The translations under genes and the position numbers were made by a program. From positions 1 to 35,647 of the forward strand of contig JAYTBU010000027.1 in assembly GCA_043736875.1 (NCBI GenBank): DNA of 35,647 nt, given 5' to 3'. This DNA comes from a bacterium (lineage in GTDB: Bacteria > Patescibacteriota > Minisyncoccia > Phycocordibacterales > UBA5272). Shown piece by piece: positions 6,315-31,651 of the stretch. Below the pieces are notes generated by a model. The model did no database searches and had not been told where the DNA came from. It saw only the letters and a program-made list of their open reading frames with translations. How positions within the stretch are numbered: position 1 is the first letter of the stretch; each line of letters opens with the position of its first letter.

Positions 6315-6339
6315 GCCCCGCCAGCGTAGCTGGCGGGGC
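6315..6339 (+). other. GC-rich perfect hairpin between the two CAT tRNAs (processing signal or weak terminator)
   Basis: GCCCCGCCAGC-GTA-GCTGGCGGGGC forms an 11-bp perfect stem with a GTA triloop. The following T run is poor (ATTTATAGAATTT). Confidence 0.5.
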
Positions 6340-6352
6340 ATTTATAGAATTT

Positions 6353-6426: not shown

Positions 6427-6452
6427 CAGAGATATGGCACACTTGATTTATC

Positions 6453-6491
6453 TACCTATTTAGTGTATACTAAATAGGTATTTAATTTTTT
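6453..6491 (+). terminator. Rho-independent terminator after the tRNA cluster
   Basis: 12-bp stem TACCTATTTAGT/ACTAAATAGGTA with loop GTAT, followed by TTTAATTTTTT. Confidence 0.6.
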
Positions 6492-6506
6492 AACAGGAGA
6501 AATAAA

Positions 6507-7013
6507 ATGAATCAAGTGATCTTTCTGGCTGGGCTTCCTGCCGTAGGTAAATCAACCTTGGCACAACAAATGGCTAAAAAATATGATGGAAAGGTTTTAG
6601 ATATAGATGACATAAAGAGAAAGTTAAGCGACCCTAATCTTGTAACGTCTTCTATTGATACTCCTGAGATTAGGTGGAGGTGCTACGAAGAAGCTGCTAG
6701 ACAAATCTTTCAATTTTTTAAAAATGGTGAAGATGTCGTTATTGTGGATGAAGTTTTTCACCTAAATGAGCTCAGGGAAAAATTAGAAGCTTTACTTGCG
6801 TCCAATGAAGTAGAAGTTGTGTGGATTCAGGTTGTTTGTTCTTTTGAACAAGTTAAGAAAAGATTGGAAAGTAAGTCTCGTACAGGTCATATTTTGTCAA
6901 CAGATGAAGCTTTGAAAATGTACGTACTTTTTCAGGAAATTTTTGAACCATTCCCCCAAGACAAAAAGAATCATTCAGTTTTCAACAATGATACTAGTTC
7001 ATTAACTGTTTAG
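6507..7013 (+). CDS. Small P-loop NTPase/kinase (AAA_33 or zeta-toxin/polynucleotide-kinase-like fold)
   Basis: 168 aa. Walker A motif is GLPAVGKST and the Walker B-like motif is VVIVDEVF. A strong Shine-Dalgarno sequence (AGGAG) lies 8 nt upstream. The gene is visibly more GC-rich than its neighbours. Confidence 0.6.
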   Translation: MNQVIFLAGLPAVGKSTLAQQMAKKYDGKVLDIDDIKRKLSDPNLVTSSIDTPEIRWRCYEEAARQIFQFFKNGEDVVIVDEVFHLNELREKLEALLASNEVEVVWIQVVCSFEQVKKRLESKSRTGHILSTDEALKMYVLFQEIFEPFPQDKKNHSVFNNDTSSLTV

Positions 7014-7028
7014 TAATCATTTTTAATT

Positions 7029-7062
7029 TGGCTGATGTAATCAAATACTCAGCCATTTTTTT
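7029..7062 (+). terminator. Rho-independent terminator after the kinase gene
   Basis: Stem TGGCTGA/TCAGCCA with inner GTA/TAC pairs, followed by TTTTTTT. Confidence 0.6.
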
Positions 7063-7118
7063 AATATATTTAACGACTTTAAATATAATTTACAATACTA
7101 ATTTTTAATAAAAATCAT

Positions 7119-7868
7119 ATGAATAAAATTTTACATTTACCCACAAAGAGAATAACTAATTCAGAATCTATAGAAAAAGTTAAAATTAACGATTCGTTAA
7201 TGTTAGCAACTGCAATAGGATTAAAAAAAGAAATAAACGAAGACTCCGTCAGTCTTTTTATTGACGGCAATATTACAAGAATATGTATTTCAGATGGTCA
7301 CTGGGGAGAAGAAGCTTCTGATATTATCAATAAGTATTGGATCGATAAAAATTTAATATTCCCTAAAAACTTAATAGAAGCACAAAATGAAACTAATAAG
7401 ATAGAAGATATTCTTTATCAAAAATTTGGTGAAAAAGTTACAGATGAAAATAAAGATTTTACACCAGAATCGAGTTTTATCTGTATAGAAATAGTGGACG
7501 ACAAGGTATCAATAGTTAGCTACGGCGATAGCAGGCTTTTTATAATGGATAAAGAAAATATAAAATTTATTCAAGAGTGTAAGAGTACATGGCTTGGAGT
7601 TTTTTCAAGACTGGGCCTCAGAGGTAGACTATCTGTAAAAGAGGGGGTTGTATTTAATGTAGAAAAGTTAAATCCTGGAGATAGTGTATTTTTATTTACT
7701 GATGGAGTGGATCAGTGTATTTATGAAAAAGATACAATAAGTTTTGATGCTATTGCTAGCTTTTCAAAAAAGTTGAATGTAGAAGATTCTGTTGACACCA
7801 TATTAAAAGAAGTCTTTAATTTTGGTGCCGAAGATAATGCTAGCTTGGTAATTTATAAATATGAGTAG
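7119..7868 (+). CDS. PP2C-family Ser/Thr protein phosphatase-like protein
   Basis: 249 aa. It carries the PP2C motif series ISDGHWGEEAS (DGxGG-like), YGDSRLF, FLFTDGV and a C-terminal AEDNASLVIY (DN-I/V-T-like). Confidence 0.65.
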   Translation: MNKILHLPTKRITNSESIEKVKINDSLMLATAIGLKKEINEDSVSLFIDGNITRICISDGHWGEEASDIINKYWIDKNLIFPKNLIEAQNETNKIEDILYQKFGEKVTDENKDFTPESSFICIEIVDDKVSIVSYGDSRLFIMDKENIKFIQECKSTWLGVFSRLGLRGRLSVKEGVVFNVEKLNPGDSVFLFTDGVDQCIYEKDTISFDAIASFSKKLNVEDSVDTILKEVFNFGAEDNASLVIYKYE

Positions 7869-11529: not shown

Positions 11530-12573
11530 ATGTTTGGCTTATTTAAAAAAGTAGAGAAAAGATATATAGGACTTGATCTAGGAGAGTCGAGTATAAAGCT
11601 TGTCGATATATCCAATCTAGAAGACAGACTAATTCTTAATAATTATACAGAATTAGAAATAGGCACATATGCAGGCAGAGAAAATGGTGAGATAGTAAAG
11701 CTTGGAGAAAAAGAGATAACCCAGGCAATAAAAGATATATACACGAGCTCAGAATCATCTTGTAAAAATTTTGTAGTGTCGGTCCCTATGCAATCATGTG
11801 TTATAAAAAGTTTTGACTTACCTATAGAAACTAAAAGTATATTGGACACTATTGTACCATACGAATTTTCAAAAGGGACAATGTTAAAAGCATATGATTT
11901 TAACATTAATTATAACATAGTAGAAGAGACAGACTCTAAGTTGAGCTTACTTGTTGTTGCAATAAAGCAAAAGGATGTAGACAGGATAAATAGTATATTT
12001 GCAGACATAGACCATAATGTTCTGCGAGTAGAACCGAGTATATTTGGACTTTCTAGAAATATAGAAAGATTAAATACTGGAAGTGTCAATATGATTATTG
12101 ATTTTGGCGCCAGTGTAACAAGCGTTCTTTTTGTCAGTGCCAACAAAGTATATATGGCTCAGACTTTTTCAAAAGGTGTAAATCAAATAATCTTAAATAT
12201 TAAAAACAATCTAAGTGTGAGTTTTTTATCAGCAAAGAAATTCTTTTTTGAGTTGGATATTTTAAATGAAAGTAGTCTAGAAGCACAGATATGTAATAGT
12301 TCATTTGCTTCTATTTTAGAAGAAGTTATACACATACAAAATAATTTTTATAATAAATTTTCATTAAAATGTAGTAATATATATATAAGCGGTGGAGGGT
12401 CAAAAATAAATAATATTGAAAGTATGATAAAGCAGTTTTTCCCGCTCATGCAAGTCTCAAAAATAAATGGATTTGAGAGATTATTTTTACCAGAAACTTT
12501 AAAGGAGACAACTTTTAAACATGGTGGAACATTTAACAATGCGATAGGAGTTACATTATCAGAAATAGAATAA
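11530..12573 (+). CDS. pilM: Type IV pilus assembly protein PilM (actin-like ATPase fold)
   Basis: 347 aa. N-terminal IGLDLGESSIKLV motif. First gene of the pilMNO-pilBTC operon. Confidence 0.85.
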   Translation: MFGLFKKVEKRYIGLDLGESSIKLVDISNLEDRLILNNYTELEIGTYAGRENGEIVKLGEKEITQAIKDIYTSSESSCKNFVVSVPMQSCVIKSFDLPIETKSILDTIVPYEFSKGTMLKAYDFNINYNIVEETDSKLSLLVVAIKQKDVDRINSIFADIDHNVLRVEPSIFGLSRNIERLNTGSVNMIIDFGASVTSVLFVSANKVYMAQTFSKGVNQIILNIKNNLSVSFLSAKKFFFELDILNESSLEAQICNSSFASILEEVIHIQNNFYNKFSLKCSNIYISGGGSKINNIESMIKQFFPLMQVSKINGFERLFLPETLKETTFKHGGTFNNAIGVTLSEIE

Positions 12574-12577
12574 ATAT

Positions 12578-13369
12578 ATGCCACCTTTCAGAAAAAATAA
12601 TAATTTTATAACAAATAAAACAGAAGAGCTGTTACCGTCTGATCCTTTTAGACCTATTGCTATTCTGGTATTTACTTTTTCTATACTTATTTCTATCTCG
12701 GTGTATGGGGGGCTTTATTATTTTGAAGCTAAAAATAAAGCTTTAGAAGATGGGGTAAAGTCACTAGAGGTTGAAATAGCTAAAATGCCACTGAAAGAAA
12801 TGGTTCAGATGTACAACAAGATCACAAACATAAACACTATTCTTTCTACAAGAAATAATGTGCTGCTGGTTCTTAATTTGCTGGCTGACTCTGTAGAAGA
12901 TGGAGTTTATTTTGAAAAGATGGACATAGTTACAAAAGAAAAATATGCTGAAATGTCTATTTTTGGAGTTACAAATAGTTATGAAAATATAGTAAAACAA
13001 ATAGATAGTATGAAAAGAGAGTCAGAATCATATAAGAGTCTGATTAAAAAAGTTACACTAAAGTCAGTCTCATCTGACAAAGATAATAATATAAAATTTT
13101 TATTATCTGTAGAAATAGACATGGTAAATAAAAATCAGTTTATGATAGAATCTAAAAAATATGACCCTACATACCAGAGTCCTTCTAGTGTAGAGATTAA
13201 TTTTGGGGGTCTAAATATCAGTACCAGTACCACCTCTACTTTTATACAAAGCTCTACGTCTTCTATAGCAACCACCACCTCAAGCTCTACTGTAGAAATA
13301 AAACCTGCACCAGACACAAAAACCACCCCAACAGAAACAGTCAAGGTAATTAAAATTAAAACAACCTAG
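12578..13369 (+). CDS. pilN: PilN-like bitopic pilus assembly protein with Ser/Thr-rich C-terminal tail
   Basis: 263 aa with an N-terminal TM span (IAILVFTFSILISISVYGGLYYF) followed by a coiled segment. It follows pilM. The tail reads STSTTSTFIQSSTSSIATTTSSSTVEIKPAPDTKTTPTE. Confidence 0.65.
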   Translation: MPPFRKNNNFITNKTEELLPSDPFRPIAILVFTFSILISISVYGGLYYFEAKNKALEDGVKSLEVEIAKMPLKEMVQMYNKITNINTILSTRNNVLLVLNLLADSVEDGVYFEKMDIVTKEKYAEMSIFGVTNSYENIVKQIDSMKRESESYKSLIKKVTLKSVSSDKDNNIKFLLSVEIDMVNKNQFMIESKKYDPTYQSPSSVEINFGGLNISTSTTSTFIQSSTSSIATTTSSSTVEIKPAPDTKTTPTETVKVIKIKTT

Positions 13370-13372
13370 AAT

Positions 13373-13951
13373 ATGAAACAATATATATTAACCATATCAC
13401 TATTTACAATATCTACGATACTGGTATTTTGTATTGTTATGCCACTGTATAATGGTTCTGGATATAGTGTTATACCGATGTCAAATCTAATACAAAAATA
13501 TACTGAAAATAAAAAATTAAAAGAAGCTTTACTGATTTCTCAGGATTTATTTTCAAATAGTGAAGAAAATGTGCGAGGCTTTTATTCTATAGATGATGAA
13601 TATAAAAGAAAATTAGACTTGGCGGTCCCAGCGGTAAAAGATATACCAAGAACTCTTAATAATATAAATGTACTTGCTTATGAAAACTCAATAGAGCTTT
13701 CCGATTTCAAGTTTTCTAAAAATATAAATGATGTAAAAAAGAAAGACTATATTACTTACGACGTTTCTTTTTCTTTGATTGGTAGATACGATAATTTTCT
13801 TAATTTTATATCTAAAATAGAAAAGAGTTTAGAAATATACAACATAAAAAGTATCTCTATAGCTACAGCTGATAACAAAGAACAGTCATATGGAACTATG
13901 AAATACGTAATTTCTCTGGAATCTTTTGAGATTAAAAATAATATTAAATAA
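13373..13951 (+). CDS. pilO: PilO-like bitopic pilus assembly protein
   Basis: 192 aa with an N-terminal TM span. The call rests on its position after the pilN-like gene and its size, both typical of PilO. Confidence 0.55.
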   Translation: MKQYILTISLFTISTILVFCIVMPLYNGSGYSVIPMSNLIQKYTENKKLKEALLISQDLFSNSEENVRGFYSIDDEYKRKLDLAVPAVKDIPRTLNNINVLAYENSIELSDFKFSKNINDVKKKDYITYDVSFSLIGRYDNFLNFISKIEKSLEIYNIKSISIATADNKEQSYGTMKYVISLESFEIKNNIK

Positions 13952-13963
13952 AATAATAAACAT

Positions 13964-14263
13964 ATGAATAAAATACAACTAAAACAAGAAAACATAAAGT
14001 ATATATACGGACTATTTTTTATGGTACTGTTATCTTTTTTTGCATACGTTGCTTATGATATTTTATACAGAGAACATCAGACAGAAGAAGTACTTTTGTT
14101 ATCGTCTGATACATTTAGAATAGTTCAGGATTTTAAAAATAAAGGTGTAAGTTTTCTAAATATAGAAAACCTAATAAATGGGACCTTCTCTTATCTGGAA
14201 AATATAAATAAAGACGTATTGCCTTTTACTGAAAAGGGCAGATTTAACCCTTTTGAAAGATAA
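13964..14263 (+). CDS. Small bitopic membrane protein of the pilus operon (possible PilP-like role)
   Basis: 99 aa with TM span YGLFFMVLLSFFAYVAY. The C-terminal GRFNPF resembles the R-D/N-P-F motif recalled from PilP-type proteins. Confidence 0.45.
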   Translation: MNKIQLKQENIKYIYGLFFMVLLSFFAYVAYDILYREHQTEEVLLLSSDTFRIVQDFKNKGVSFLNIENLINGTFSYLENINKDVLPFTEKGRFNPFER

Positions 14264-14264
14264 T

Positions 14265-15989
14265 ATGATAATATTAACCGAACTTTTAAAAAGAAATATA
14301 TTATCTGAGCTGCAGGTAAGAGACATAAGTAACAAATTAGATGCGGGAGATGTTTTAACTGTTGATGATGCTTTTAAAGTTTTTAATGTGCAAGCTAGTG
14401 TAGTAAAGCAAGTCAGGTCTGAGATTTTCGCTTTACCAACTTTTGATACTGTAATAAAATTAGACACTAATAATATAAATTATCTAGATCAGAGCATGGC
14501 TAGAAAATATAAGATATTGCCACTTAATTTTTCTGATAATACACTAAGTGTTGGTCTGGTTGACCCAGAAAATCAAGACACTATATCTGTTATAGAAAAT
14601 TCAACCATTAAAAATGGTATCAAATACAAACTTTTTTTAATATCTCAAGATCAGTTTGAGGCAGGTCTGATTGAGTATTTTAATGCAAGTGTAGAAGAAG
14701 AGTCTGCAAAATCATTGGTTTTGGGAGATGTAAATAGTAGTGTCGGAGACTTGGATAAAAAAGAGGCAACAGACATAACCAAATTTGACCAAGATTTATC
14801 TAAAAATATAACAGACGATAGTGTAGATACAATAGTAAACACTCTTATAAATCAAGCTTTAAAGCAAGATGTAAGTGATATACATATAGAGCATCTGGGA
14901 GACAGTCTTCGGGTTAGGTACAGGATAGACGGAGTGTTAGAGAAGAAATTAGAGTTACCACCGAGCATGCACTCATCATTAATAGCAAAAGTTAAAATAC
15001 TTTCTGATATGAAGCTTGATGAAAAAAGAAAGCCACAAGATGGACGTTTTTCTGTCAGGATAGAAGGTCATAAGGTAGATTTTCGTGTGTCATCTATGCC
15101 AGGATACTATGGTGAGAAAGTGGTTATACGTATTTTAGATAGTTATAGAGGTATAAGAAAGCTTGAAAATATGGGTTTTAGTGAGCTGCATTTAAAGCAA
15201 ATTAGAAATGCTCTGCAGAGACCTTATGGTATGATACTCATAAGTGGTCCGACAGGATCTGGAAAAACCACCACTTTATACTCAATGATAAATGAAATAG
15301 ACAGAGATAAAAGAAATGTTGTATCATTAGAAGACCCAATAGAATACAATGTGTCAGGCATGAATCAGTCACAGATATTCCCAGAGATAGGTTATAACTT
15401 TTCTACTGGATTACGCTCTATATTACGTCAAGATCCTGACGTCATTATGGTTGGAGAAATACGTGACGCAGAGACGGCTCAGCTAGCTGTGCAAGCAGCA
15501 CTGACAGGACACTTAGTTTTTTCTACTATACACACCAATAATAGTGTTGGAGTTATAACTAGATTAATAGATATGGGTGTAGATCCATTTTTGATAGCAC
15601 CTACGCTTTGTCTTTCTATAGCACAACGTCTGGTTCCTCAAATATATCCAAAATGTGAAGCTCCTCTTGAAATGGGTGAAGGTTTAAAAGCTATGATAAA
15701 AAAAGAATTTGAAGAATTGCCGGAAAGCTTTAGAGAGAAATTAGATTTGGATAGGCCTGTGTATCAAGCTCTGCCAAATGAAATAGCACCATCAGGAACA
15801 AAAGGTCGCGTACCAGTTTTGGAGATACTAGAAATTGATGATGATATACAAAATGCTATAGTTACTAAAAAATCAGAAGATGATTTGTGGAAAATAGCAA
15901 AGACAAAAGGTATGATAACCATGAAGCAAGATGCTATCATAAAATCTATGAATAAAATAGTTCCATTTGTGGAAATCGCCGGCTTGTAA
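14265..15989 (+). CDS. pilB: Type IV pilus extension ATPase PilB (GspE family)
   Basis: 574 aa counted from the ATG at 14265. Walker A motif is GPTGSGKTTT, plus VGEIRD and FSTIHTN boxes and an N-terminal T2SSE_N-like region. Confidence 0.9.
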   Translation: MIILTELLKRNILSELQVRDISNKLDAGDVLTVDDAFKVFNVQASVVKQVRSEIFALPTFDTVIKLDTNNINYLDQSMARKYKILPLNFSDNTLSVGLVDPENQDTISVIENSTIKNGIKYKLFLISQDQFEAGLIEYFNASVEEESAKSLVLGDVNSSVGDLDKKEATDITKFDQDLSKNITDDSVDTIVNTLINQALKQDVSDIHIEHLGDSLRVRYRIDGVLEKKLELPPSMHSSLIAKVKILSDMKLDEKRKPQDGRFSVRIEGHKVDFRVSSMPGYYGEKVVIRILDSYRGIRKLENMGFSELHLKQIRNALQRPYGMILISGPTGSGKTTTLYSMINEIDRDKRNVVSLEDPIEYNVSGMNQSQIFPEIGYNFSTGLRSILRQDPDVIMVGEIRDAETAQLAVQAALTGHLVFSTIHTNNSVGVITRLIDMGVDPFLIAPTLCLSIAQRLVPQIYPKCEAPLEMGEGLKAMIKKEFEELPESFREKLDLDRPVYQALPNEIAPSGTKGRVPVLEILEIDDDIQNAIVTKKSEDDLWKIAKTKGMITMKQDAIIKSMNKIVPFVEIAGL

Positions 15990-16004
15990 TTTGTAAAAAT
16001 GTAG

Positions 16005-16010
16005 TATAAT
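16005..16010 (+). promoter_or_regulatory. Internal -10 box (TATAAT) with leaderless spacing to pilT
   Basis: TATAAT at 16005-16010, then exactly 6 nt to the ATG at 16017. Confidence 0.45.
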
Positions 16011-16016
16011 GTATCT

Positions 16017-17087
16017 ATGCAAGAAAAATATTTATCTAACGACTTACTTAATAATCTAATACTAACTCTGGTAAAAGAAGACGGTTCTGACATACACTTG
16101 GTTGCGGATATGAGTCCAGCAGTGCGTATACATGGTGAACTTATACCCATAACAAAAGTTTCCAAGTTAGAATCTTCTGAAATAGTTGAAATACTGAGGC
16201 TCATAATAACTCCAGAGCAGTATGAAAAGTATTTGAGTGATCAGCAAGTGGACTTTTCTTACACTCATTCAGGTGAGTACAGACTAAGAGGGCATGCCTT
16301 TGTTCAAAAAGGGAAAACTAGTTTAGTGCTTAGGCTTGTACCAAAAATAAAAGAGATTAATGACCTTAACTTACCAAAAGAGTTATTGGATGTGTGCAAG
16401 CTAAAACAAGGCTTCTTTTTGGTGGTGGGCCCAGTAGGACAAGGAAAGTCAACTACGCTTGCTAGTATGATTAATTACATTAACACAAATGATAAAAAAA
16501 TAATCTCTACCATAGAGGACCCTATAGAATATATACACGAATCAAAAAATAGCTATATAACACAAAGAGAAATAGGTACAGATACAAAAAGTTTCCCAGC
16601 AGCTCTGGAGGCAACTTTTAGACAAGATGTAGACGTCATACTTTTAGGAGAAATGCGTGACGCAGATACTATACGCACTGCCGTAACTGCTGCTGAGACT
16701 GGGCATTTAGTGTTTTCTACTTTACATACTAACTCTGCTTCACAGACGATAGACAGAGTTATAGATTCTTTCCCCTCTAATCAGCAAGATCAGATACGCT
16801 CACAACTAGCTTCTTCTTTGGTTGGAGTATTTTCACAGAGACTGCTACCAAAGATTGGTGGCGGACTCATGCCTATATATGAGCTATTAATGGTTAATAG
16901 TGCAGTACAGAACCTGATCAGAGAGAAAAGATCTTATGAGATAGATAATATAATAGAGACTGGCGCACATTCTGGCATGATTAGTTTTGACAGATGTCTA
17001 GCTGCTGCTGTTGTTAGAGGTGATGTACCGATAGACGAAGCTATATTGCACGCTAAAAACAAAGACATGTTTCAAGACTTAATATAA
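16017..17087 (+). CDS. pilT: Twitching-motility (retraction) ATPase PilT
   Basis: 356 aa. Walker A motif is GPVGQGKSTT, plus LGEMRD and GHLVFSTLHTNSA. The size is typical of PilT. Confidence 0.9.
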   Translation: MQEKYLSNDLLNNLILTLVKEDGSDIHLVADMSPAVRIHGELIPITKVSKLESSEIVEILRLIITPEQYEKYLSDQQVDFSYTHSGEYRLRGHAFVQKGKTSLVLRLVPKIKEINDLNLPKELLDVCKLKQGFFLVVGPVGQGKSTTLASMINYINTNDKKIISTIEDPIEYIHESKNSYITQREIGTDTKSFPAALEATFRQDVDVILLGEMRDADTIRTAVTAAETGHLVFSTLHTNSASQTIDRVIDSFPSNQQDQIRSQLASSLVGVFSQRLLPKIGGGLMPIYELLMVNSAVQNLIREKRSYEIDNIIETGAHSGMISFDRCLAAAVVRGDVPIDEAILHAKNKDMFQDLI

Positions 17088-17112
17088 AAAATTAAACATA
17101 AATACTATCAAT

Positions 17113-18321
17113 ATGAAATATAAATACAAAATATTTGGTCAGGATACAAAAATAAAAGAGGGTTATGTCGAGGATACCAGTAGAGAAAATGTGATCTTAA
17201 AGTTGCAGGCCGAGGGTAATATAATCATAACTGTAGAAGAGTCTATGGTTGTAGATGAGCTTTCTTTTTTTAAAAGATATCAAAAGAGAATAACAAAAAA
17301 AGATATAGTGTTATCGACAAAGCAATTGTCAACTTTGGTGGGTGGTGGAGTGCAGATACTAAGGGCTTTTAGGTTGCTTTCTAGTGAATCATCTTCTGCT
17401 GGTTTAGGAGAAAGATTCAAGATAATAGCAGATGATATACAGGCTGGTATGCAAGTATACAAGGCAATGTCTAGACATAGTGATGTTTTCGATTCTTTTT
17501 ATATATCTATGGTGCATAGCGGTGAAGAGACTGGAAAGTTAAAAGAAACTTTTGAATACTTGGCTGATTATATAGAAAGGAATTATGAGCTTGTGCAAAA
17601 AACAAAAAAAGCTTTGACATATCCTATGTTTGTTATAGCTACATTTATCGTTGTTATGATGATAATGGCTTTTGTTGTTTTGCCAAAATTAGTTGCCCTG
17701 ATATCAGAGCAAGGCCAAGAGATACCAGCTTTTACCAGGGGTATACTATGGGTATCTAACTTTTTGAAAGATTTTTGGTATATAGTTTTTCCAGCTATTG
17801 GGGCATTTATATTTTACCTATTTCAATATTCTAAAACTCCAGGAGGAGTGGCTTATTTTGACACTTTAAAGCTAAAAGTACCGATACTTAGTGGTTTGTA
17901 TCAAAAGCTATACTTGTCGCGCTTTGCTGACAATATAGATACTATGATAGGCTCTGGAGTGCCGATAGTTCAGTCACTGCAAATAACAGCTGAAGTAGTT
18001 GATAATTATGTTTTTAAAAAGATATTTGAAAGAGTGGCTGAGAAAGTTAAACAAGGTAAAATCTTGTCTGTTGCGCTAACAGAAGAGCCGATGATACCAA
18101 ATATTATGGTTCAGATGACCAGAATAGGAGAGGAGACTGGCGAGCTGGGTTACATGCTTAAAAATGTAGCAAAGTTCTACAAAAGAGAGTTAGAACAGAC
18201 AATAGAGTCAACGATATCGCTCATAGAGCCGCTTATGATAGTAGCTCTCGGCGGTGGTGTCGGACTACTCATGGCCTCTGTGCTTATGCCTATGTATAAC
18301 ATAGCTAGCTCTATACAATAA
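17113..18321 (+). CDS. pilC: Type IV pilus platform protein PilC (GspF family)
   Basis: 402 aa with a duplicated GspF-type domain, three hydrophobic spans, and a position after pilB/pilT. Confidence 0.9.
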   Translation: MKYKYKIFGQDTKIKEGYVEDTSRENVILKLQAEGNIIITVEESMVVDELSFFKRYQKRITKKDIVLSTKQLSTLVGGGVQILRAFRLLSSESSSAGLGERFKIIADDIQAGMQVYKAMSRHSDVFDSFYISMVHSGEETGKLKETFEYLADYIERNYELVQKTKKALTYPMFVIATFIVVMMIMAFVVLPKLVALISEQGQEIPAFTRGILWVSNFLKDFWYIVFPAIGAFIFYLFQYSKTPGGVAYFDTLKLKVPILSGLYQKLYLSRFADNIDTMIGSGVPIVQSLQITAEVVDNYVFKKIFERVAEKVKQGKILSVALTEEPMIPNIMVQMTRIGEETGELGYMLKNVAKFYKRELEQTIESTISLIEPLMIVALGGGVGLLMASVLMPMYNIASSIQ

Positions 18322-21711: not shown

Positions 21712-22194
21712 ATGAAAAAAGGCTATCTTAGTTTTAGTTTAAATAAAAAATCTAATGATGATGTTGCTAAATTTGTCAATTCTTTAAATGAAAGTATTTT
21801 TGCACATAAAAATATTAACGGTAAAATAATAGGTGGTAAAGAAAAAGATTTACATATGACTTTATTTTTTGGTATTAATGATGAAAAGTTGAATAGTGGA
21901 AAAATGAATACTTTTTTAGAAAGTGTAAAATTAAAATCATTAAACGTAAAAGATTTAGACTTATTTAAGATAAAGGGAATGAAAGAAAAAGTTTTAGTTA
22001 TAAAATTAGAAAAAAATGAAGAATTAGAAAAACTTAGAAATTCTGTTTTTAATTTTGATTATTTTGAAGATGGATTTACTAACAGCTACACTCCACACAT
22101 AACATTGGGTTATGTAAAATCTGGTATAAATATTTCTAATATGAGCATAAATATTAAAAGTGTTGATTTCGAAAAACCTTTATATTTATTTTAG
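21712..22194 (+). CDS. 2H phosphoesterase superfamily protein (LigT/cyclic phosphodiesterase-like)
   Basis: 160 aa with two H-x-T-x motifs at the expected spacing (LHMTLFFG and PHITLGYV). Very AT-rich. The last codons and the stop lie inside repeat copy 2. Confidence 0.65.
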   Translation: MKKGYLSFSLNKKSNDDVAKFVNSLNESIFAHKNINGKIIGGKEKDLHMTLFFGINDEKLNSGKMNTFLESVKLKSLNVKDLDLFKIKGMKEKVLVIKLEKNEELEKLRNSVFNFDYFEDGFTNSYTPHITLGYVKSGINISNMSINIKSVDFEKPLYLF

Positions 22195-24906: not shown

Positions 24907-24934
24907 AAAAGGCCGCGACGAAGTCGCGGCCTTT
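24907..24934. terminator. Bidirectional GC-rich terminator hairpin between convergent cysS and the M23 peptidase gene
   Basis: AAAA-GGCCGCGAC-GAA-GTCGCGGCC-TTT forms a 9-bp perfect GC stem with a GAA triloop. Confidence 0.75.
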
Positions 24935-24943
24935 CCCTTTCTA

Positions 24944-26101
24944 TTAAAAAGGATTACTAGCTCCGCGTATCTCAAAATGTAAATGTGGACCAGTAGATTT
25001 TCCAGTGTTACCAGACTCTCCTACAACCTCTCCTTTTGAGACAGATTGTCCATTAGAAACATATACACTATTCATATGTCCATATACAGACTGAGTTCCA
25101 TTAGAGTGGCTTATAATAAGCATTTTACCATAACCACCATTCCACCCACTATTTTTAGCTACTTGTACCACTCCGTCAGCAGCAGCGAGTAGTGTAGATC
25201 CTACAGGAGCACCGATATCTACTGCATTTTGCCCATGTATTCCCTGGGTTCTAATTCCGCCTATAATAGGTCTAGTATAGTAACCATCACCAGCATTAGC
25301 ATATATTTTTCTTTTTTTGATTACCGTTTTCTCTTTTATATTTTTCTTACCATCTTTCTTCTCCTCTTTTTTACCATCTGGATACAGGTTGCCATCTGGA
25401 ACTATTATCTCATCACCTACAGACAGTTCTAAATTTGTAAGATTGTTAAATTCACTAATGTCATCAATGTCAGCATTATATTTTTTTGCCAAAAACTTTA
25501 AAGTATCTCCTTTTTTAACCACATGCTTTACACCAGACACAGGAAGTATAACGAGTATTTCACCTCGTTTCGCTTTGCCATCTTTAATATCATTAGCCCA
25601 AGCAATAGTATTTTTAGAAACATTGTACATCTTTGCTATGTCACTTAGTGTGTCACCTTCTTTTACTTCATATACTTGTATAGAATCATTTTCATATACC
25701 TCCTCATCTGTACTTGTTCTAAGAGGTCCTACGGAAGCTTTTAAAGTGTTTTCTTCATTTACATTTTTTAAAAAGTTAGCAGAATCTTTAGAAGATGCTG
25801 TGCCAAAAGATGTTACTTCTACATCTTTTCTATCTTTTGCTTTTTCTACTGTAGTTTTTGCACTTGCACGCAGTACAAAAACTTCTTCTTTTTGTATCTC
25901 TTCTGACTTTACAACAGATTCACTTTTAACATTAGAGACTAGGAGGTTTTTTATTTTATCAAACGTTGTATCAAAAATACTAGCTGAAGCGTATTTTGTA
26001 TCGGCAGAAACAAGTGTTATGGTAATAATAAAAGACAAAATAACCTTTGTGTAGTAAAGGTTATTTTTAAAACTATTTATTTGTGAGTTAGTTTTTTTCA
26101 T
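24944..26101 (-). CDS. Secreted or anchored peptidoglycan hydrolase: two LysM domains plus an M23 metallopeptidase domain
   Basis: 385 aa with an N-terminal hydrophobic segment. LysM repeats are YEVKEGDTLSDIAKMYNVSKNTIAWAN and HVVKKGDTLKFLAKKYNADIDDISEFN. M23 motifs are HGQNAVDIGAPVGS and GNTGKSTGPHLHFEIR. Confidence 0.9.
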   Translation of the reverse strand: MKKTNSQINSFKNNLYYTKVILSFIITITLVSADTKYASASIFDTTFDKIKNLLVSNVKSESVVKSEEIQKEEVFVLRASAKTTVEKAKDRKDVEVTSFGTASSKDSANFLKNVNEENTLKASVGPLRTSTDEEVYENDSIQVYEVKEGDTLSDIAKMYNVSKNTIAWANDIKDGKAKRGEILVILPVSGVKHVVKKGDTLKFLAKKYNADIDDISEFNNLTNLELSVGDEIIVPDGNLYPDGKKEEKKDGKKNIKEKTVIKKRKIYANAGDGYYTRPIIGGIRTQGIHGQNAVDIGAPVGSTLLAAADGVVQVAKNSGWNGGYGKMLIISHSNGTQSVYGHMNSVYVSNGQSVSKGEVVGESGNTGKSTGPHLHFEIRGASNPF

Positions 26102-26252
26102 AATTTACCAGACTTTTACTCTGGCTTATTTCGAACGTATACAAATACTAACATTTATACAATATAAAAGCAAGGTTTTTTGCTATATTTTTATACACAT
26201 ATTTCTTATTGCTAATTGTGTATAAGGCACCTTTTATTTTTTATTTTTAGTG

Positions 26253-26258
26253 TATAAT
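26253..26258 (+). promoter_or_regulatory. -10 box (TATAAT) with leaderless spacing to the long coiled-coil gene
   Basis: TATAAT at 26253-26258, then exactly 6 nt to the ATG at 26265. Confidence 0.5.
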
Positions 26259-26264
26259 AGAATT

Positions 26265-29200
26265 ATGAATCCATCTCAAAGCCAGCCAGTCTCAGAAGTT
26301 AAGCCGTCACAAAGATTATCTTTTCATGAACAGATGAAGAGACTAAAACAAGGTATAAATGATAACTCCCTAAATCCAGAAAGAAATCTTTTACAGATAC
26401 AGGATCTAAATAGAGGTTTTGATGCTATGGATAGATTTGAAAATAACACCAAAACACCATTAAGCAAAGAGTTTGTAGATGTGAAAAATTCTTCTATTCG
26501 TGATGGGGTTATAAATCTTGAAAATATTGCAACCTTACTAAAGAAGAGAGAAACCTTACTTGGTCAACCAGCATCTTTAGCTAGAGTCAAAAAATTTGGC
26601 GGTGAGATAAAATCTAAAACAGTAGAATTACAAAATAAAATAGAAGATTTTAAATCTGCGGAACTTAAAAAAGATTTTACTATAGAAAAACTAACAGAAA
26701 GTAGAAATAATTTTACCCGCGAGTTATCTATGGCTGAGAATTATCTCCAAAGTTATCAAATAAAAATACTATCTCTCAGTAAAAAAATCTCAGAGATGCA
26801 TATCGAGATAGACAGTGTTTCAGAAGATAGTATCGAGCACAAAAAAGCAAAAGAAGAATTAGAAAATAAAGTAAAAGAGTTAGAAAAGTCTGATATCACT
26901 CTAAATGAGCAGATTAAAAACTATGAAAAAGAGATAATGGAATTAAGAGATGCAAAAGACGAAGCTGAGAATCTTATAAAAGAAAAAGAAGCTCTATTAA
27001 AAACCGCAACAGAGAATCATTCAAAAGAAGTATCAGACCATACAAAAGTATTGTCCGGAGCATTATCGCATAATGCTGCTTTGAAAGTAGAAAACATCAG
27101 CTTGGATCAAGGTAATAAAAAACTTGTATCTGAAGTAGATAAGACTAAATCAGAAAAACAACAAATGGAGGAAGATAATAGAAAAGAGTTGCGCGAAAGA
27201 GTGTTGGAAAAGAAAAAAGACATAGAGTCTGACTCAGATAATTATTTACTAGAAATACAAAAAATTTTAGATGAGATTAAAAATAAAAATAACTTATACA
27301 CCAAAGCTGATTTTGAAAAAGATAGAAACCTCTTAAATGATAAGGTTAAAAAAAGCTCTAAATCAATAGAGTCATACAGAAAAGATCTTTTGAAAAGTGA
27401 TAGTCTTGACAGTCGAAACTTTTGGTCAAAATATATAAATAAAAATGCTTCAAAAATTGGAGATGAAGACTATGTTCCATTTTATGTAGATAAAAAAGTC
27501 CATGATATGATGTTGGATTTTGTAGCTAGGGCACAACAGAGAATAAAAGAGGTGGTAAAAAAAGATAAGGACTTAAAAAAAATTAGCAAGCTACCTTTAG
27601 ATGAAGATGATAGCGCTAGAGATTATTTTAACAATGACTTTCTGAAACCGGCAGAAGAGATTTCTGAATATAATCGCAGACAAAAAGCCTTAAGAGAAAT
27701 ACAGAGTAAGCCTGTTGCCAAAGAAAATATTGCAGAAGAGGATATAGTAGTTCCAGTTCCTGAGAGCGACTTAGAGAAACTTTCCAAAGATCCAGACTGG
27801 ATTGAAGCCGTTAGAACAGGAGTTGTACCAGATACTATTTTTGATGAGATAATAAGAAAAACTGTAGCTGGAGAAACTCTATCTTTTAAAGAAATTCAAA
27901 TGGGTACTTTACAGTCCGACAGAATAAATAAAAAATTACAGGAAATAAAAGATGATGAAGAAGCTAAAAAAAATATAGACTCAGCTGCGCTGTGGGAGGA
28001 GCAACAGAAAGTAGACTTAAAAGAATCTTTGGATAAAAAAATAAAAGAAGAAAACGTGCTCTTTATTTTAACTAATAAAGCCGCAACTACAGAGAGCTAT
28101 TTAAAAATTATTAAAACTTTTAAGAGTGTTGGTACTATCGGAGACGATGAGATATTGAAATCTCTTGAGATACAGATCCAAAATAGTTTTGGCAAATATA
28201 ACATAAGTGAAAAAAGTAAAAAAGATTTTTCTACTGCATTACTTAAAAAATACAATGATGATAAATTGGAAGCAGAAATAGGAAAACAAAAACTTATTGA
28301 TTTGGGTATAGCTGCTGCTCAAGAAGTAAAAAGAATTTTTGACTTAAAAGAAAAAGAGCGGTTGGAAAAAGAAAAAAAAGACAGAGAGATTAAAGCTTGG
28401 AGAGAGGACATGGACAAGGTCTTTGGCCCAAGATTTATTGTTTCCCAAAATCAAGATCAGGTTAGGGTATGGGCTAAAAATGATCTACCTGAAGAAACTT
28501 TTGTGGCGGAACCCACTGATATTAATTTGAGTGATTTAGATAAGGTAGAAGACTTGCCAGAGCAAATAAAGACTCCAGAAAGGCAAGGTTTTCTAAAAAA
28601 ATGGAGCTCTTATCTTGCTATTGCTCTAGCTTCTAGTCTTGTTGCTGTTGGGATAGGGGACGACTCAAATGATAAAGAAGTAAAACAAGTTGCGCCTGTA
28701 ACCCAAACTGCGCCAGTACAAGAGGTTAAGGAATCAGTTTTTGCCGCACCAATTAGCGATTTTGATAAAATAGAATCAGGAGATGAAAAAGAATACAGAA
28801 TGGGCTACACACTAATACAAGGAGGCAGGTTTAACCCTTGCGGATTAAGATATGCTAATCAAGTGGGAGCTAAAAATGTAAACGGTTTTGCTATCTTTGA
28901 AAATATTAATCAAGGTTGGACGGCGTGTTTGAGGCAAATTGAAAAGTATCAAGACGGAACAACAGCAAATAAAAATCCGGACGGAAGCAAAGTGGTAACT
29001 TTAGAGCAGTTTGTAAATGTCTGGGCTCCAAAAAATGAAAATGATACAAATGGTTACTTAAACAAACTTTCAAAAATATTAGAAGTTGATAAAAATAAAA
29101 AAATAGCAGAAATAGATTACAGGAAACTGGCGATGGGTGTTATTAGAATGGAGGGTTATGCGTATACAAAACCAGAATGGGAAAAGATACAAGTAGAAGG

Positions 29201-29270
29201 GAAAAGATTTGGTAGTTATGTGATGCAAGGGTCGCCAATCAATAATCTAAATTATAATATAAAAATATAA
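26265..29270 (+). CDS. Giant coiled-coil protein (about 1000 aa) with one membrane span and a C-terminal globular domain
   Basis: 1001 aa counted from the ATG at 26265. About 780 residues are Lys/Glu-rich with heptad-like character. A single hydrophobic span (WSSYLAIALASSLVAVGIG) is encoded around 28600-28660. The C-terminal domain contains GGRFNPCGLRY...NGFAIFENINQGWTACLRQIEKYQ...VWAPKNENDTNGYL. Confidence 0.6.
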   Translation: MNPSQSQPVSEVKPSQRLSFHEQMKRLKQGINDNSLNPERNLLQIQDLNRGFDAMDRFENNTKTPLSKEFVDVKNSSIRDGVINLENIATLLKKRETLLGQPASLARVKKFGGEIKSKTVELQNKIEDFKSAELKKDFTIEKLTESRNNFTRELSMAENYLQSYQIKILSLSKKISEMHIEIDSVSEDSIEHKKAKEELENKVKELEKSDITLNEQIKNYEKEIMELRDAKDEAENLIKEKEALLKTATENHSKEVSDHTKVLSGALSHNAALKVENISLDQGNKKLVSEVDKTKSEKQQMEEDNRKELRERVLEKKKDIESDSDNYLLEIQKILDEIKNKNNLYTKADFEKDRNLLNDKVKKSSKSIESYRKDLLKSDSLDSRNFWSKYINKNASKIGDEDYVPFYVDKKVHDMMLDFVARAQQRIKEVVKKDKDLKKISKLPLDEDDSARDYFNNDFLKPAEEISEYNRRQKALREIQSKPVAKENIAEEDIVVPVPESDLEKLSKDPDWIEAVRTGVVPDTIFDEIIRKTVAGETLSFKEIQMGTLQSDRINKKLQEIKDDEEAKKNIDSAALWEEQQKVDLKESLDKKIKEENVLFILTNKAATTESYLKIIKTFKSVGTIGDDEILKSLEIQIQNSFGKYNISEKSKKDFSTALLKKYNDDKLEAEIGKQKLIDLGIAAAQEVKRIFDLKEKERLEKEKKDREIKAWREDMDKVFGPRFIVSQNQDQVRVWAKNDLPEETFVAEPTDINLSDLDKVEDLPEQIKTPERQGFLKKWSSYLAIALASSLVAVGIGDDSNDKEVKQVAPVTQTAPVQEVKESVFAAPISDFDKIESGDEKEYRMGYTLIQGGRFNPCGLRYANQVGAKNVNGFAIFENINQGWTACLRQIEKYQDGTTANKNPDGSKVVTLEQFVNVWAPKNENDTNGYLNKLSKILEVDKNKKIAEIDYRKLAMGVIRMEGYAYTKPEWEKIQVEGKRFGSYVMQGSPINNLNYNIKI

Positions 29271-29283
29271 AAAATAATAAAAT

Positions 29284-29535
29284 ATGCAATTATTTAAAAT
29301 AGACGAGAAAGTTTTATATGAAAAATACTTTGAAAATATGACACTCAAAGAGTTTTTTGAGTTGGATCATATACCAAAAAATGTAGAAGAAAATCATATG
29401 CGTAATATGGCTGTATTTTTAAAAAAAGTTACAGATGAAAATAGTAAAGTGTCAGATATTCAAAATATGACTATAGGCAATATTATGATAAATATTATTA
29501 TAAACAATAACATGTTAGACTTATCAGAAAAGTAA
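29284..29535 (+). CDS. Hypothetical small protein (83 aa) between the two coiled-coil genes
   Basis: ORF spaced 13 nt after the previous stop, on the same strand. No recognisable motif. Confidence 0.45.
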   Translation: MQLFKIDEKVLYEKYFENMTLKEFFELDHIPKNVEENHMRNMAVFLKKVTDENSKVSDIQNMTIGNIMINIIINNNMLDLSEK

Positions 29536-29565
29536 TTTTTTGTGATATAATAATATTAGAAATAT

Positions 29566-31443
29566 ATGTCATTAGAAAATCCTGAAACAAATCCAGAAAA
29601 AGAAATAAAACAACATAGGTCGCCCGAGGATTATTCTGGTTACAGAGATGATTTAGAGATGAAATTAAGCGATGCGCATAGTAAATTAATTAACTTTGTT
29701 AGTAAGTATCAATCTGATAAATCAAAAGCTGATACACTAGAAAAAAATAAGTCTGCAGAAGATAACTTTTCTACATCTTTGGAAGTTTTAAAAGTATCTT
29801 TAAAGAATTTTAAAAAACAATTACCTTCAAATACTGACATAGATATATTGGAATTAGCAGAAGATGAGAAAAGTGGAGAAAAAAATAAGGATAATAAAAA
29901 ACTTACCAATAAAAAGACTAAATTAAAATCTGATTATAAGAGCGTATCTGACAGTGTTGATAAGTTTGTAAAAGAAAAAATAGATCCATATCTTGATAAA
30001 ATGACTAATCCAGATGCTATTTTTAAAAAAATAGAAGAAAATAGTCCTCAGAAAATAAATGAGTTTTTAGAGAGTCAGATTAGTAAAGCTCTTGACCTGA
30101 AGATAGAAATTGAAAACAAGAAAAAAGAATCAAAAACTCTATCAGATTCAGAGAAGCAAAGATATAAAAACTCTCTCATAAATTTGGAAAAAGGTTTTAA
30201 TGTTAGTTTTTTAAGGTTGCAAAATGCTGACACCACATTGAATAAAAGGTTTTTAGAATTAAGAACCCAAATAGAGTTGGAGCTAGATAAAAAACCAGAT
30301 GACACGGTAGAAAAATTCCAAAAGGTAGTGGAGGGTTTAGAAAAAATTAATTCTAATTTGTCAAAAATTAATGCAGATGTGACTACTGTACAGAAAGATG
30401 GTAGCATAATCAAAAGAGGTACAGAAGAGTTTATAGAGTTTTCAGATAGGTTAGAATCAGAAGCAGTAAAAATAGATGATATTAATATACTAATTCAAAA
30501 AATAGAAGATACTTTTACTTCACCTTCTAGGCCAAGCAGAGATCAGGTTTTAAAAATGGATAGAATAATTATTTTAAGAGATAAGGCGTCATCTTTTATA
30601 AACAGAATACAAAAAAAGATAGATAAAGAAAAAAACATGTCCGCAAAGGACCAAAGAGACAATGCAAAGGCCATGAGTGATCGTATGGTTGTTACTGAAA
30701 AACAAATAAGTGAGGCTCATGATAAGCTCGTTATAGGTGAAAAGTTTCCAGCAGGAGAAAAAGAAGGGTTTCAAGTGTTATTAGATGTAGAAGATGTAAA
30801 CTTAAAGGAAGTAAAATCAGAATTAGAAAAATTAGAAGCAAAAAATGATGATGCAGATAATCCTACAAAGATATTGGTTAGAAAAATAGTAGATAGAATA
30901 GAAAAGAGGTTGATAGTTTTGCATGAAAAGCTTGATAAAGAGAGACTTCCAAAAGAAAAAGATATACTAGAAAAACTGGATGCTGCAGAAAAAGAAATAG
31001 AAAAAACAGAATCAAAAATACGAGACATAAGCCAAAAAATGGCTGAAGAAAAAAACAAAATAAAACAAGAACTTGCAAGCGGAGATAAAAATGTCTCAGC
31101 CATAGCAAGTATAGGTAAAATAGTTATGGGTCCGACTAACCCAATGACATATCACGACCAGTATGATGTAAGTAGTGAGATGGGACATGCTCTGGATGAT
31201 ATAAATACAGCAAAAGACTGGATAAATATGATGCCAGCTGATGATGAAAAACAAAGAAAGTTAAAAAATAAGTTAAGAAGCAAATCACGCCGTATGTATA
31301 GACGTCAAAATAGTGTAAAGTGGAGACACTTTATGAAGTTGCCTGCTGGACAGATGGGTAAATATGTTGGAAATAAAATGATAGCTGATCCGCTTGTGGC
31401 AGGTTATGATAAAGTGGCAGATAGAGTATTTGGGGGTAGATAA
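29566..31443 (+). CDS. Long coiled-coil protein (625 aa) with a basic C-terminal tail
   Basis: Lys/Glu/Asp-rich helical sequence throughout, with no hydrophobic span. The tail reads KLKNKLRSKSRRMYRRQNSVKWRHFMKLPAG. An extended -10 (TGaTATAAT, 29543-29551) lies 14 nt upstream. Confidence 0.55.
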   Translation: MSLENPETNPEKEIKQHRSPEDYSGYRDDLEMKLSDAHSKLINFVSKYQSDKSKADTLEKNKSAEDNFSTSLEVLKVSLKNFKKQLPSNTDIDILELAEDEKSGEKNKDNKKLTNKKTKLKSDYKSVSDSVDKFVKEKIDPYLDKMTNPDAIFKKIEENSPQKINEFLESQISKALDLKIEIENKKKESKTLSDSEKQRYKNSLINLEKGFNVSFLRLQNADTTLNKRFLELRTQIELELDKKPDDTVEKFQKVVEGLEKINSNLSKINADVTTVQKDGSIIKRGTEEFIEFSDRLESEAVKIDDINILIQKIEDTFTSPSRPSRDQVLKMDRIIILRDKASSFINRIQKKIDKEKNMSAKDQRDNAKAMSDRMVVTEKQISEAHDKLVIGEKFPAGEKEGFQVLLDVEDVNLKEVKSELEKLEAKNDDADNPTKILVRKIVDRIEKRLIVLHEKLDKERLPKEKDILEKLDAAEKEIEKTESKIRDISQKMAEEKNKIKQELASGDKNVSAIASIGKIVMGPTNPMTYHDQYDVSSEMGHALDDINTAKDWINMMPADDEKQRKLKNKLRSKSRRMYRRQNSVKWRHFMKLPAGQMGKYVGNKMIADPLVAGYDKVADRVFGGR

Positions 31444-31469
31444 ACCACCTAGAAATAAATATATTTTTA

Positions 31470-31478
31470 TGTTATAAT
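31470..31478 (+). promoter_or_regulatory. Extended -10 promoter (TGtTATAAT) for tRNA-Ile
   Basis: TG at 31470-31471 and TATAAT at 31473-31478, 36 nt upstream of the tRNA. Confidence 0.55.
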
Positions 31479-31514: not shown

Positions 31515-31587
31515 GCGCGAATAGCTCAGCTGGTAGAGCACTCGACTGATACTCGAGCGGTCCCAAGTTCGAATCTTGGTTCGCGCA
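31515..31587 (+). tRNA. tRNA-Ile: tRNA-Ile (GAT), no CCA encoded
   Basis: Acceptor GCGCGAA/TTCGCGC. D arm GCTC-AGCTGGTA-GAGC. Anticodon arm CTCGA-CTGATAC-TCGAG. Variable loop CGGTC. T arm CCAAG-TTCGAAT-CTTGG. Discriminator is A. Confidence 0.9.
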
Positions 31588-31605
31588 CAGCAAAAAACTC
31601 AAATA

Positions 31606-31651
31606 ATACTCGAGCGGTCCGCTATTAAAATTTTGTCGAATCTTGGTTCGC
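31606..31651 (+). pseudogene. Decayed 3'-half copy of tRNA-Ile, 18 nt downstream of the intact gene
   Basis: ATACTCGAGCGGTCC (31606-31620) equals tRNA positions 31549-31563. TCGAATCTTGGTTCGC (31636-31651) equals 31569-31584. The intervening CAAGT is replaced by GCTATTAAAATTTTG. Confidence 0.8.

Follow-up and report, generated by a model that had tools for sequence, protein, structure and literature searches.

A predicted wall hydrolase anchored in the membrane, its unprecedentedly large cytoplasmic region and two putative orphan partner proteins in a bacterium of the Patescibacteriota

The DNA analysed in this study (the window) is the whole stretch of 35,647 nucleotides (nt) at positions 1–35,647 of contig JAYTBU010000027.1 (assembly GCA_043736875.1), from a bacterium of the Phycocordibacterales (Patescibacteriota), and our subject is a block of three adjacent open reading frames, ORF1, ORF2 and ORF3, at 26265–31443. 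The sequence of the block points to a wall hydrolase, ORF1, that is anchored in the membrane and has a cytoplasmic region of unprecedented size, and to two orphan partners, ORF2 and ORF3, of rare and narrow distribution. Residues ~856–970 of ORF1 were assigned by sequence similarity to the Enc34/PHA02564-like lysozyme-like glycosidases, an established family of which ORF1 is a further member, predicted to be active. The reading that we favour, with a probability of roughly one half, is that ORF1 is a bitopic wall hydrolase whose position or activity is set from the cytoplasmic side by its own helical region, ORF2 and the core of ORF3, with remodelling of the cell's own wall as the most likely use.

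RESULTS

The C-terminal region of ORF1 carries an Enc34-type glycosidase domain

The genes of the block and the parts of their products, with lengths in amino acids (aa), are as follows.

26265–29270, + strand: ORF1, 1001 aa counted from the ATG
26265–28601, + strand: ORF1 residues 1–779, predicted cytoplasmic region, highly charged and mostly helical-looking
28602–28658, + strand: ORF1 residues 780–798 (WSSYLAIALASSLVAVGIG), single hydrophobic, predicted transmembrane span
28659–28829, + strand: ORF1 residues 799–855, predicted extracellular linker in which D, E, V, Q, A, P and T are abundant
28830–29174, + strand: ORF1 residues ~856–970, putative Enc34-type (PHA02564) lysozyme-like peptidoglycan glycosidase domain, assigned with PHROG, phmmer, tblastn and Foldseek
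29022–29024, 29055–29057 and 29151–29153, + strand: W920, Y931 and E963, predicted catalytic signature of ORF1
29175–29270, + strand: ORF1 residues 971–1001 and stop codon, short conserved tail of ~30 residues (…NY.. NI..)
29284–29535, + strand: ORF2, 83 aa
29566–31443, + strand: ORF3, 625 aa
29566–30630, + strand: ORF3 residues 1–355, fast-evolving helical N-terminal half
30631–31443, + strand: ORF3 residues 356–625, strongly conserved C-terminal core
31231–31365, + strand: ORF3 residues ~556–600, basic helix with 15 K/R versus 3 D/E

The three genes lie on the same strand with spacers of 13 and 30 nt, next to a divergent LysM/M23 gene, as the first-pass annotation of this DNA had described, and terminator prediction gave none inside the block.

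In the PHROG database, ORF1 matched phrog_873 ("endolysin") at 1.6e-17, phrog_2276 ("tail length tape measure protein") at 4e-13 and phrog_7182 ("tail injection transglycosylase") at 3e-9, and all three matches were restricted to residues 855–966. With the C-terminal region alone as query, phrog_873 reached 5e-19, and values of 5e-14 and 1e-10 were also obtained for phrog_2276 and phrog_7182. A single-sequence phmmer search of the Protein Data Bank (PDB) linked the domain to 7q47 at 6.4e-4, the catalytic domain from Hafnia phage Enc34's endolysin, founder of the PHA02564 family (PMC8943055). The Enc34 domain is all-helical and resembles the alpha-lobe of lysozyme, its muralytic activity has been demonstrated, and it was inferred to be a GH73-like N-acetylglucosaminidase (PMC8943055). 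Its signature of Trp79, Tyr95 and the catalytic Glu131, defined for Enc34 (PMC8943055) and with protein P5 of phage PM2 (bioRxiv 10.1101/2022.07.18.500477), aligned with W920, Y931 and E963 of ORF1 in the phmmer alignment (chain index +1 for all three). The retention of this Trp/Tyr/Glu signature, of which the Tyr and Glu are also kept in distant relatives of ORF1, argues for an active enzyme. Furthermore, 7q47 ranked first (E = 0.016, template modelling score ~0.3) in a Foldseek search with a poor structural model of the domain.

By tblastn, the domain was detected in 146 phage records (~30% identity, best 1e-7), annotated as endolysin, virion or tape-measure protein, and also in ~400 SSU5-like phage-plasmids. 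In Pantoea phage PdC23 it stands at the very C-terminus of a tape-measure protein (gp15), with ~31% identity over 136 residues, and in SSU5 it is the endolysin within a holin–endolysin–spanin cassette. A five-way alignment of the window, PdC23, SSU5 and two distant chromosomal relatives (contigs L003 and L007, described below) left N857, L861, G868, F878, G884, Y931, L955 and E963 invariant. The first-pass statement that none of the three proteins matches a family therefore stands for ORF2 and ORF3 but is contradicted by the C-terminal domain of ORF1, whose matches are to lysozyme-like families of phages.

ORF1 is predicted to cross the membrane once, with its N-terminus inside

The single membrane span with ~200 residues downstream of it and no N-terminal signal peptide, reported in the first-pass annotation, was recovered at residues 780–798. 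The span is Ala/Ser/Gly-rich with small-xxx-small motifs (Kyte–Doolittle 1.85 over 17 residues) and is flanked by four K/R on its N side versus four D/E on its C side, and the ORF1 homologues of L003 and L007 show the identical arrangement of flank charges. Given this charge pattern and the missing signal peptide, an N-in/C-out orientation is natural under the positive-inside rule, suggesting that ORF1 is bitopic and, in the window as in the relatives, has the cytoplasmic helical part and the external C-terminal domain that had been proposed. The linker between span and enzyme domain, ~55 residues in length, is acidic and Val/Gln/Pro-rich. A released endolysin of the signal-arrest-release type was considered for the Ala/Ser/Gly-rich span and was excluded because a 780-residue cytoplasmic region cannot exit after the helix.

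K, E, D and R make up 36% of ORF1 and 39% of ORF3. The claim of ~780 residues of coiled-coil-like sequence in ORF1, and of such sequence throughout ORF3, appears to be overstated. In a heptad test, in which the 3.5-residue hydrophobic periodicity was measured by Fourier analysis and compared with shuffled sequences, the signal in ORF1 was clear only at ~88–240, and its periodic length of 86 residues showed no excess over the shuffles (66 ± 53); in ORF3, a signal appeared only at ~227–313 and ~453–533. Heptad periodicity is thus present locally in both proteins, but its total in ORF1 does not rise above that of shuffled sequences. Stretches of ORF1 free of proline and glycine lie at 114–264, 284–398 and 548–622. 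Ahead of the membrane span are an acidic stretch and the juxtamembrane motif PExIKTxE, which the ORF1 homologues of L003 and L007 share in the form PExIKTxE....F.

Residues 1–779 of ORF1 gave zero matches in Pfam, NCBIfam, PDB and PADLOC, and whole ORF1 gave one weak chance match only in Pfam at E ≤ 1, neither MapZ nor FimV being detected. Word-indexed searches for homologues, with full-length ORF1 or its C-terminal 221 residues as query, returned the query only or nothing, K/E-rich words flooding the candidates.

ORF2 and ORF3 are orphan proteins with conserved cores

ORF2 lacks both a signal peptide and a membrane span and is the best-conserved member of the block, its N-terminal ~55 residues being nearly invariant among relatives (56–87% identity and 41 invariant columns in the alignment). 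No credible match to it was found in Pfam, NCBIfam, PHROG, PADLOC, PDB or phage sequences.

ORF3, which is also without a membrane span, ends in the strongly basic tail noted earlier, located in the helix at residues ~556–600, where net charge reaches +10 over residues 562–579. Its C-terminal core holds the motifs MSAKDQRENAK, EKLDAAEKEIEK, TYHxQ, KDWxxxMP and KKARRMNRR..S.KWRH, which are kept across the family. An AlphaFold2 (AF2) model of ORF3 built from a four-sequence alignment (predicted local distance difference test score, pLDDT, 62; predicted template modelling score 0.30) was all-helical, with ~15 helices of 10–83 residues. In Foldseek searches of PDB and viral libraries, this model had no match at E ≤ 0.001; the top, non-significant matches were generic helical rods, spectrin repeats first, and tape-measure proteins were also among them.

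Pfam and NCBIfam gave nothing credible for ORF1, ORF2 or ORF3, and no known relatives of ORF3 were found in PHROG, PADLOC, PDB or phage sequences. The Pfam match of ORF3 to COG6_N (8.7e-7), shared by one of eight family members, and the matches of its profile in PDB to HlyD (E ~0.007) and apolipoprotein (E ~0.2) were dismissed as chance coiled-coil similarity. Pfam, NCBIfam and PADLOC also gave nothing above chance for SMC/MukB-like, DivIVA, EzrA or other named coiled-coil families, in agreement with the first-pass finding of no SMC, DivIVA, EzrA or surface-anchor signatures. PADLOC returned no defence-system match for the three proteins, the sole match being to the JetC coiled coil at E = 0.07. 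A type VII secretion LXG-like toxin with small helical partners was rejected in the absence of an EssC-like ATPase or WXG support (WXG100 E = 0.23). ORF1 and ORF3 are not paralogues of each other.

The block is rare and syntenic, and its conserved parts are under purifying selection

An HMMER pass with ORF3 over 1.84 billion representative proteins yielded 13 matches, 7 of them below 1e-30, and the ORF3 family is thus real but very rare. A genome scan with the ORF3 alignment found one locus, to which metagenome and viral contigs, scanned with the alignments of ORF3 and ORF2, added none. The order ORF1-like, ORF2-like (81–83 aa) and ORF3-like is kept in contigs L003–L008, which represent three other lineages (L003–L006, one lineage in four assemblies; L007 and L008, one lineage each), bearing out the three genes as one conserved block. 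L008 is a close relative, with 87% identity in ORF2, 86% identity in the ORF1 enzyme domain, and tRNA-Ile and DedA downstream as in the window. L003 and L007 are distant, with 56–60% identity in ORF2, ~39% in the ORF3 core and ~25% in the ORF1 C-terminal domain, and their ORF1 homologues share the layout of helical region, membrane span, stalk and C-terminal domain. A UvrD-like helicase lies downstream of the block in L003–L007, and L003 and L007 also have three unknown proteins and an FtsX/ABC (ATP-binding cassette) pair there.

The contigs L003–L007, from five independent assemblies, all stop within the ORF1 homologue at an (ACACCA)n repeat, which encodes (Thr-Pro)n, at the following positions.

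L003, 1–115: (ACACCA)n repeat
L004, 1–52: (ACACCA)n repeat
L005, 1–28: (ACACCA)n repeat
L006, 40–130: (ACACCA)n repeat
L007, 1–28: (ACACCA)n repeat

In the distant relatives the (Thr-Pro)n repeat is on the cytoplasmic side of the membrane span, and ORF1 of the window has no such repeat. This assembly break conceals the N-terminal ends of the homologues in these relatives, together with whatever genes lie upstream, a possible M23 gene among them.

The ratio of nonsynonymous to synonymous substitution rates (dN/dS), computed between the window and L008, came to 0.10 in the enzyme domain of ORF1 and 0.16 in ORF2, against 0.07 in the N-terminus of DedA. In ORF3, residues 356–625 were 90–98% identical with a dN/dS of 0.04, and residues 1–355 were 15–40% identical (nucleotide identity ~45–55%) with a dN/dS of 0.68; the variable region has sharp edges at the start codon and at ~30637. 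Purifying selection acts on the enzyme domain of ORF1, on ORF2 and on the C-terminal half of ORF3. The strong conservation of the C-terminal half of ORF3, basic helix included, versus the near-free N-terminal half indicates that the former is the functional core, and the latter resembles a helical spacer under weak constraint or, possibly, a diversifying surface.

These data bear on the view that the block is a decaying or domesticated phage fragment, derived from a tape-measure-like gene or a membrane-anchored endolysin and with no organised cellular role. The tape-measure protein of PdC23 has the same architecture of a long helical part with a C-terminal Enc34-type domain, phrog_2276 matched at 4e-13, and the block ends beside a tRNA-Ile gene with an att-like scar. 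However, the phage similarity is limited to ~110 residues, so that membership in known phage families such as the tape-measure proteins, the outcome by which the first-pass proposal was to be judged wrong, applies in part, to the enzyme domain only. No phage genes (capsid, terminase, tail, integrase, holin or spanin) were found in the window or in L003–L007, no relatives of ORF2 or ORF3 turned up among phages or viral contigs, and the block is typical in GC content. Furthermore, the three genes are intact and ordered in four lineages with differing flanks. Synteny in different chromosomal contexts, purifying selection and the lack of any other phage gene together make a prophage remnant very unlikely.

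The block lies in ordinary chromosomal DNA

The block is flanked by CysS and the LysM/M23 gene on one side and by tRNA-Ile, DedA and MurA on the other. The window also encodes YkuD, GatA, MsrAB, DnaE, PilM/N/O, PilB, PilT, PilC, Dus, an RluA-like protein and a major facilitator superfamily transporter, and its DedA carries a VTT domain. At 90% identity even the housekeeping proteins are singletons. GC content varies little along the window, the block not being atypical, and an Rfam search found tRNAs only. The window is ordinary chromosome, cellular rather than viral. The features upstream of ORF1 are as follows.

24944–26101, − strand: LysM/M23 gene, divergent from ORF1, 385 aa, with two LysM repeats and a Peptidase_M23 domain
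26102–26264, strand not applicable: divergent intergenic region of 163 nt between the LysM/M23 gene and ORF1

The LysM/M23 protein matched Peptidase_M23 (9e-30) and LysM (3e-21) in Pfam and DipM/MepM-like domains in NCBIfam, and it has an N-terminal hydrophobic span at residues 15–33 and an HLH motif. These properties point to a secreted or anchored peptidoglycan endopeptidase, which as a neighbour of the block is a possible functional partner.

A perfect TATAAT lies at 26253–26258, 6 nt ahead of the ORF1 ATG, and a GTG five codons 5′ of that ATG falls within this box. A TGnTATAAT element (TGATATAAT) lies at 29543–29551, 14 nt ahead of the ORF3 ATG, and a strong −10 element at 31450–31478 precedes tRNA-Ile. 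No Shine–Dalgarno motif was visible upstream of ORF1, ORF2 or ORF3 on reading of the sequence. The −10 elements 6–14 nt from the starts and the lack of a Shine–Dalgarno motif suggest leaderless or short-leader mRNAs in the source organism.

Several further observations were made in the surroundings of the block. Between the convergent CysS and LysM/M23 genes, a GC-rich hairpin of 12–13 bp with T-runs on both strands (24907–24935) fits a bidirectional terminator, and a 6.6-kb contig from another run (L001) starts right at it. Downstream of the block, the tRNA-Ile gene (31515–31588) is followed at 31597–31651 by a degenerate direct copy of its 3′ half (39 nt at 74% plus 16/16 nt), which resembles an att-type scar left by an earlier integration or excision; in L008 this partial copy is absent and the DedA start codon comes directly after the tRNA. 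DedA and MurA give the neighbourhood downstream a cell-envelope flavour, which is weak evidence. A type IV pilus cluster at 11530–18321 encodes PilM, PilN, a PilO-like protein, PilB (T2SSE and MshEN), a PilT-like protein and PilC (T2SSF); no secretin gene was seen in the window, and the cluster is 8 kb from the block and unlinked to it in the relatives. Bacterial TSP3 (thrombospondin type 3-like, calcium-binding) repeat proteins, otherwise unannotated, are encoded in the window at 2797–4320 and in L003 at 6291–7265, the latter a few genes downstream of the block. A 160-aa ORF at 21712–22191 matched 2H phosphoesterases weakly (2H-SAK, 2.5e-5; the anti-CBASS Acb1 family, 2e-4), both under the curated cut-offs, and two tRNA-Met (CAT) genes stand in tandem at 6214–6285 and 6353–6427, 67 nt apart.

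DISCUSSION

The identity of the ORF1 domain, its intact catalytic signature, the gene order and the selection pattern are shown by the sequence data, and the following scenario may explain the block. The extracellular glycosidase of ORF1 would cleave the glycan strands of peptidoglycan, and the charged helical part of ~780 residues would stay in the cytoplasm. ORF2 and the C-terminal half of ORF3 may act as partners in the cytoplasm, bound to one another and/or to the juxtamembrane part of ORF1, and together with ORF1 they would set the place and timing of the external enzyme, wall hydrolysis thereby being ruled from inside the cell. Candidate contact sites are ORF1 residues ~740–778, which contain the juxtamembrane motif and the preceding acidic stretch, and the +10 basic helix of ORF3; the fast-evolving helical parts may be spacers. 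The likeliest use would be remodelling of the cell's own wall, in the form of septum splitting or of wall opening for envelope-spanning machines, to which the neighbouring LysM/M23 endopeptidase possibly adds a complementary peptide-bond cut. The general idea of the first-pass annotation, a cytoplasmic helical region physically tied to a wall-acting element, is thus supported; its proposal of a cytoskeletal, division or attachment apparatus is speculation.

We infer the topology, partner binding, enzymatic activity and physiological role of this system, and several results weigh against the scenario. The position of Trp920 is a Tyr in L003 and L007. The C-terminal domains of these two relatives, taken alone, fall below detection in searches of the PHROG families, and they are tied to the domain of the window by an hhalign E-value of 1.5e-4 (probability 52%), synteny and architecture; a profile combining the window and distant domains found nothing in PDB. 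The AF2 single-sequence model of the ORF1 domain, all-helical, is poor (pLDDT 45.7). Apart from the juxtamembrane motif, the cytoplasmic part of ORF1 has no sequence conservation in the relatives, and contact of ORF2 and ORF3 with ORF1 is deduced from gene order alone. Linkage to an M23 gene is documented only in the window and in the identical 6.6-kb contig of the other run. Finally, with 13 matches of ORF3 in 1.84 billion proteins, a core housekeeping role is unlikely to be general.

If the organism is an epibiont or a competitor, the same enzyme, tethered to the membrane on its linker, could instead target the wall of a host, prey or competitor at a contact site, where the cytoplasmic scaffold would concentrate it. 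The Enc34-type fold typically attacks foreign walls, as in endolysins and in virion and tape-measure proteins, and it is a predicted effector domain of type VI secretion systems (PMC13340143). The extracellular part is longer in L003 and L007 (~320 residues, including a helical stalk), the dN/dS of 0.68 over ORF3 residues 1–355 would suit a system involved in conflict, and type IV pilus genes share the window with the block. However, purifying selection on the enzyme domain is strong (dN/dS 0.10), the half of ORF3 that evolves fast is cytoplasmic and unexposed, no immunity-like secreted protein adjoins the block, ORF2 lacking a signal peptide, and the 55-residue linker of ORF1 may not reach beyond the cell's own wall. 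We thus regard a foreign target as unlikely in comparison with own-wall remodelling.

MapZ/LocZ of streptococci binds the wall without cutting it and binds FtsZ. ORF1 resembles it, and FimV/HubP as its mirror image, in having a cytoplasmic N-terminal region, one membrane span and a wall-directed C-terminal domain, by analogy only, and differs from MapZ in that the catalytic residues are kept. On this analogy, the block could be a mainly structural, envelope-spanning cytoskeletal or landmark system, in which the C-terminal domain is a mere wall anchor and the helical proteins assemble into a filament or a scaffold at the pole. The bitopic N-in/C-out layout, in which the external domain is directed at the wall, the large helical cytoplasmic mass in two proteins with some heptad segments, and the spectrin-repeat rods at the top of the ORF3 fold matches, though non-significant, are compatible with it. 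The kept Trp/Tyr/Glu signature speaks against a mere anchor, as do the patchy heptads, whose coverage in ORF1 is not above shuffles, the almost neutral evolution of the rods and the lack of similarity to known cytoskeletal or landmark families, and a mainly structural system seems quite improbable.

Among phage enzymes, the Enc34-type endolysins (Enc34 ORF39, PDB 7Q47; Salmonella phage SSU5; M4Lys of BSPM4) share with ORF1 a homologous catalytic domain with the Trp/Tyr/Glu signature and the combination of an enzyme domain and a membrane-spanning segment in one polypeptide. However, these endolysins measure ~230 aa, begin with the catalytic domain, carry two transmembrane helices at the C-terminus and are encoded in holin/spanin cassettes (PMC8943055), whereas ORF1 is a chromosomal protein of 1001 aa with the span ahead of the domain, a 780-residue cytoplasmic region and no lysis genes nearby. 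No holin or spanin gene adjoins ORF1, and neither ORF2 nor ORF3 carries a membrane span. Phage tape-measure and virion proteins (PdC23 gp15; phrog_2276, phrog_873 and phrog_7182) are likewise long and helical with a muralytic C-terminal domain, but ORF1 has no tail-gene context, no similarity to them beyond the enzyme domain, a membrane anchor obeying the positive-inside rule, and conservation with two non-phage partner genes. By context and by extent of similarity, ORF1 is thus neither a tape-measure protein nor a lysis-cassette endolysin.

The cellular systems closest in logic are the division hydrolase systems of FtsEX with PcsB, EnvC, CwlO or RipC, in which an extracellular coiled coil receives a signal via an ABC transporter. 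As in these systems, helical elements in the block would couple a cytoplasmic input to an external hydrolase, and an enzyme of the M23 family is nearby. In contrast, the helical mass of ORF1 would lie inside, covalently linked to the enzyme by one membrane helix, the block encodes no ATPase, and the three proteins showed no sequence similarity to FtsEX-type hydrolase systems in Pfam or NCBIfam.

To our knowledge, spatial control of wall-cutting enzymes is understood in few model systems, such as FtsEX-type activation, and is essentially unknown in poorly sampled, uncultivated lineages. Two things limit the importance of the present finding, how rare the family is and how far its function rests on inference. 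It clearly exemplifies the recruitment of a phage lytic domain by a membrane protein of the cell, and it provides a concrete, testable set of proteins and parts: ORF2, the core of ORF3, and the juxtamembrane motif and enzyme domain of ORF1. More tentatively, the block may be a lineage-specific trans-envelope device, in which a captured phage-derived enzyme, one membrane helix, a cytoplasmic scaffold, the adaptor ORF2 and the bipartite ORF3, hypervariable in its N-terminal half and nearly invariant in its basic C-terminal half, would provide a non-FtsEX means of wall opening for division or host contact in an ultra-small bacterium. A phage-type glycosidase fused to a very large cytoplasmic region and accompanied by two conserved partners would be a different solution to the control of wall hydrolysis.

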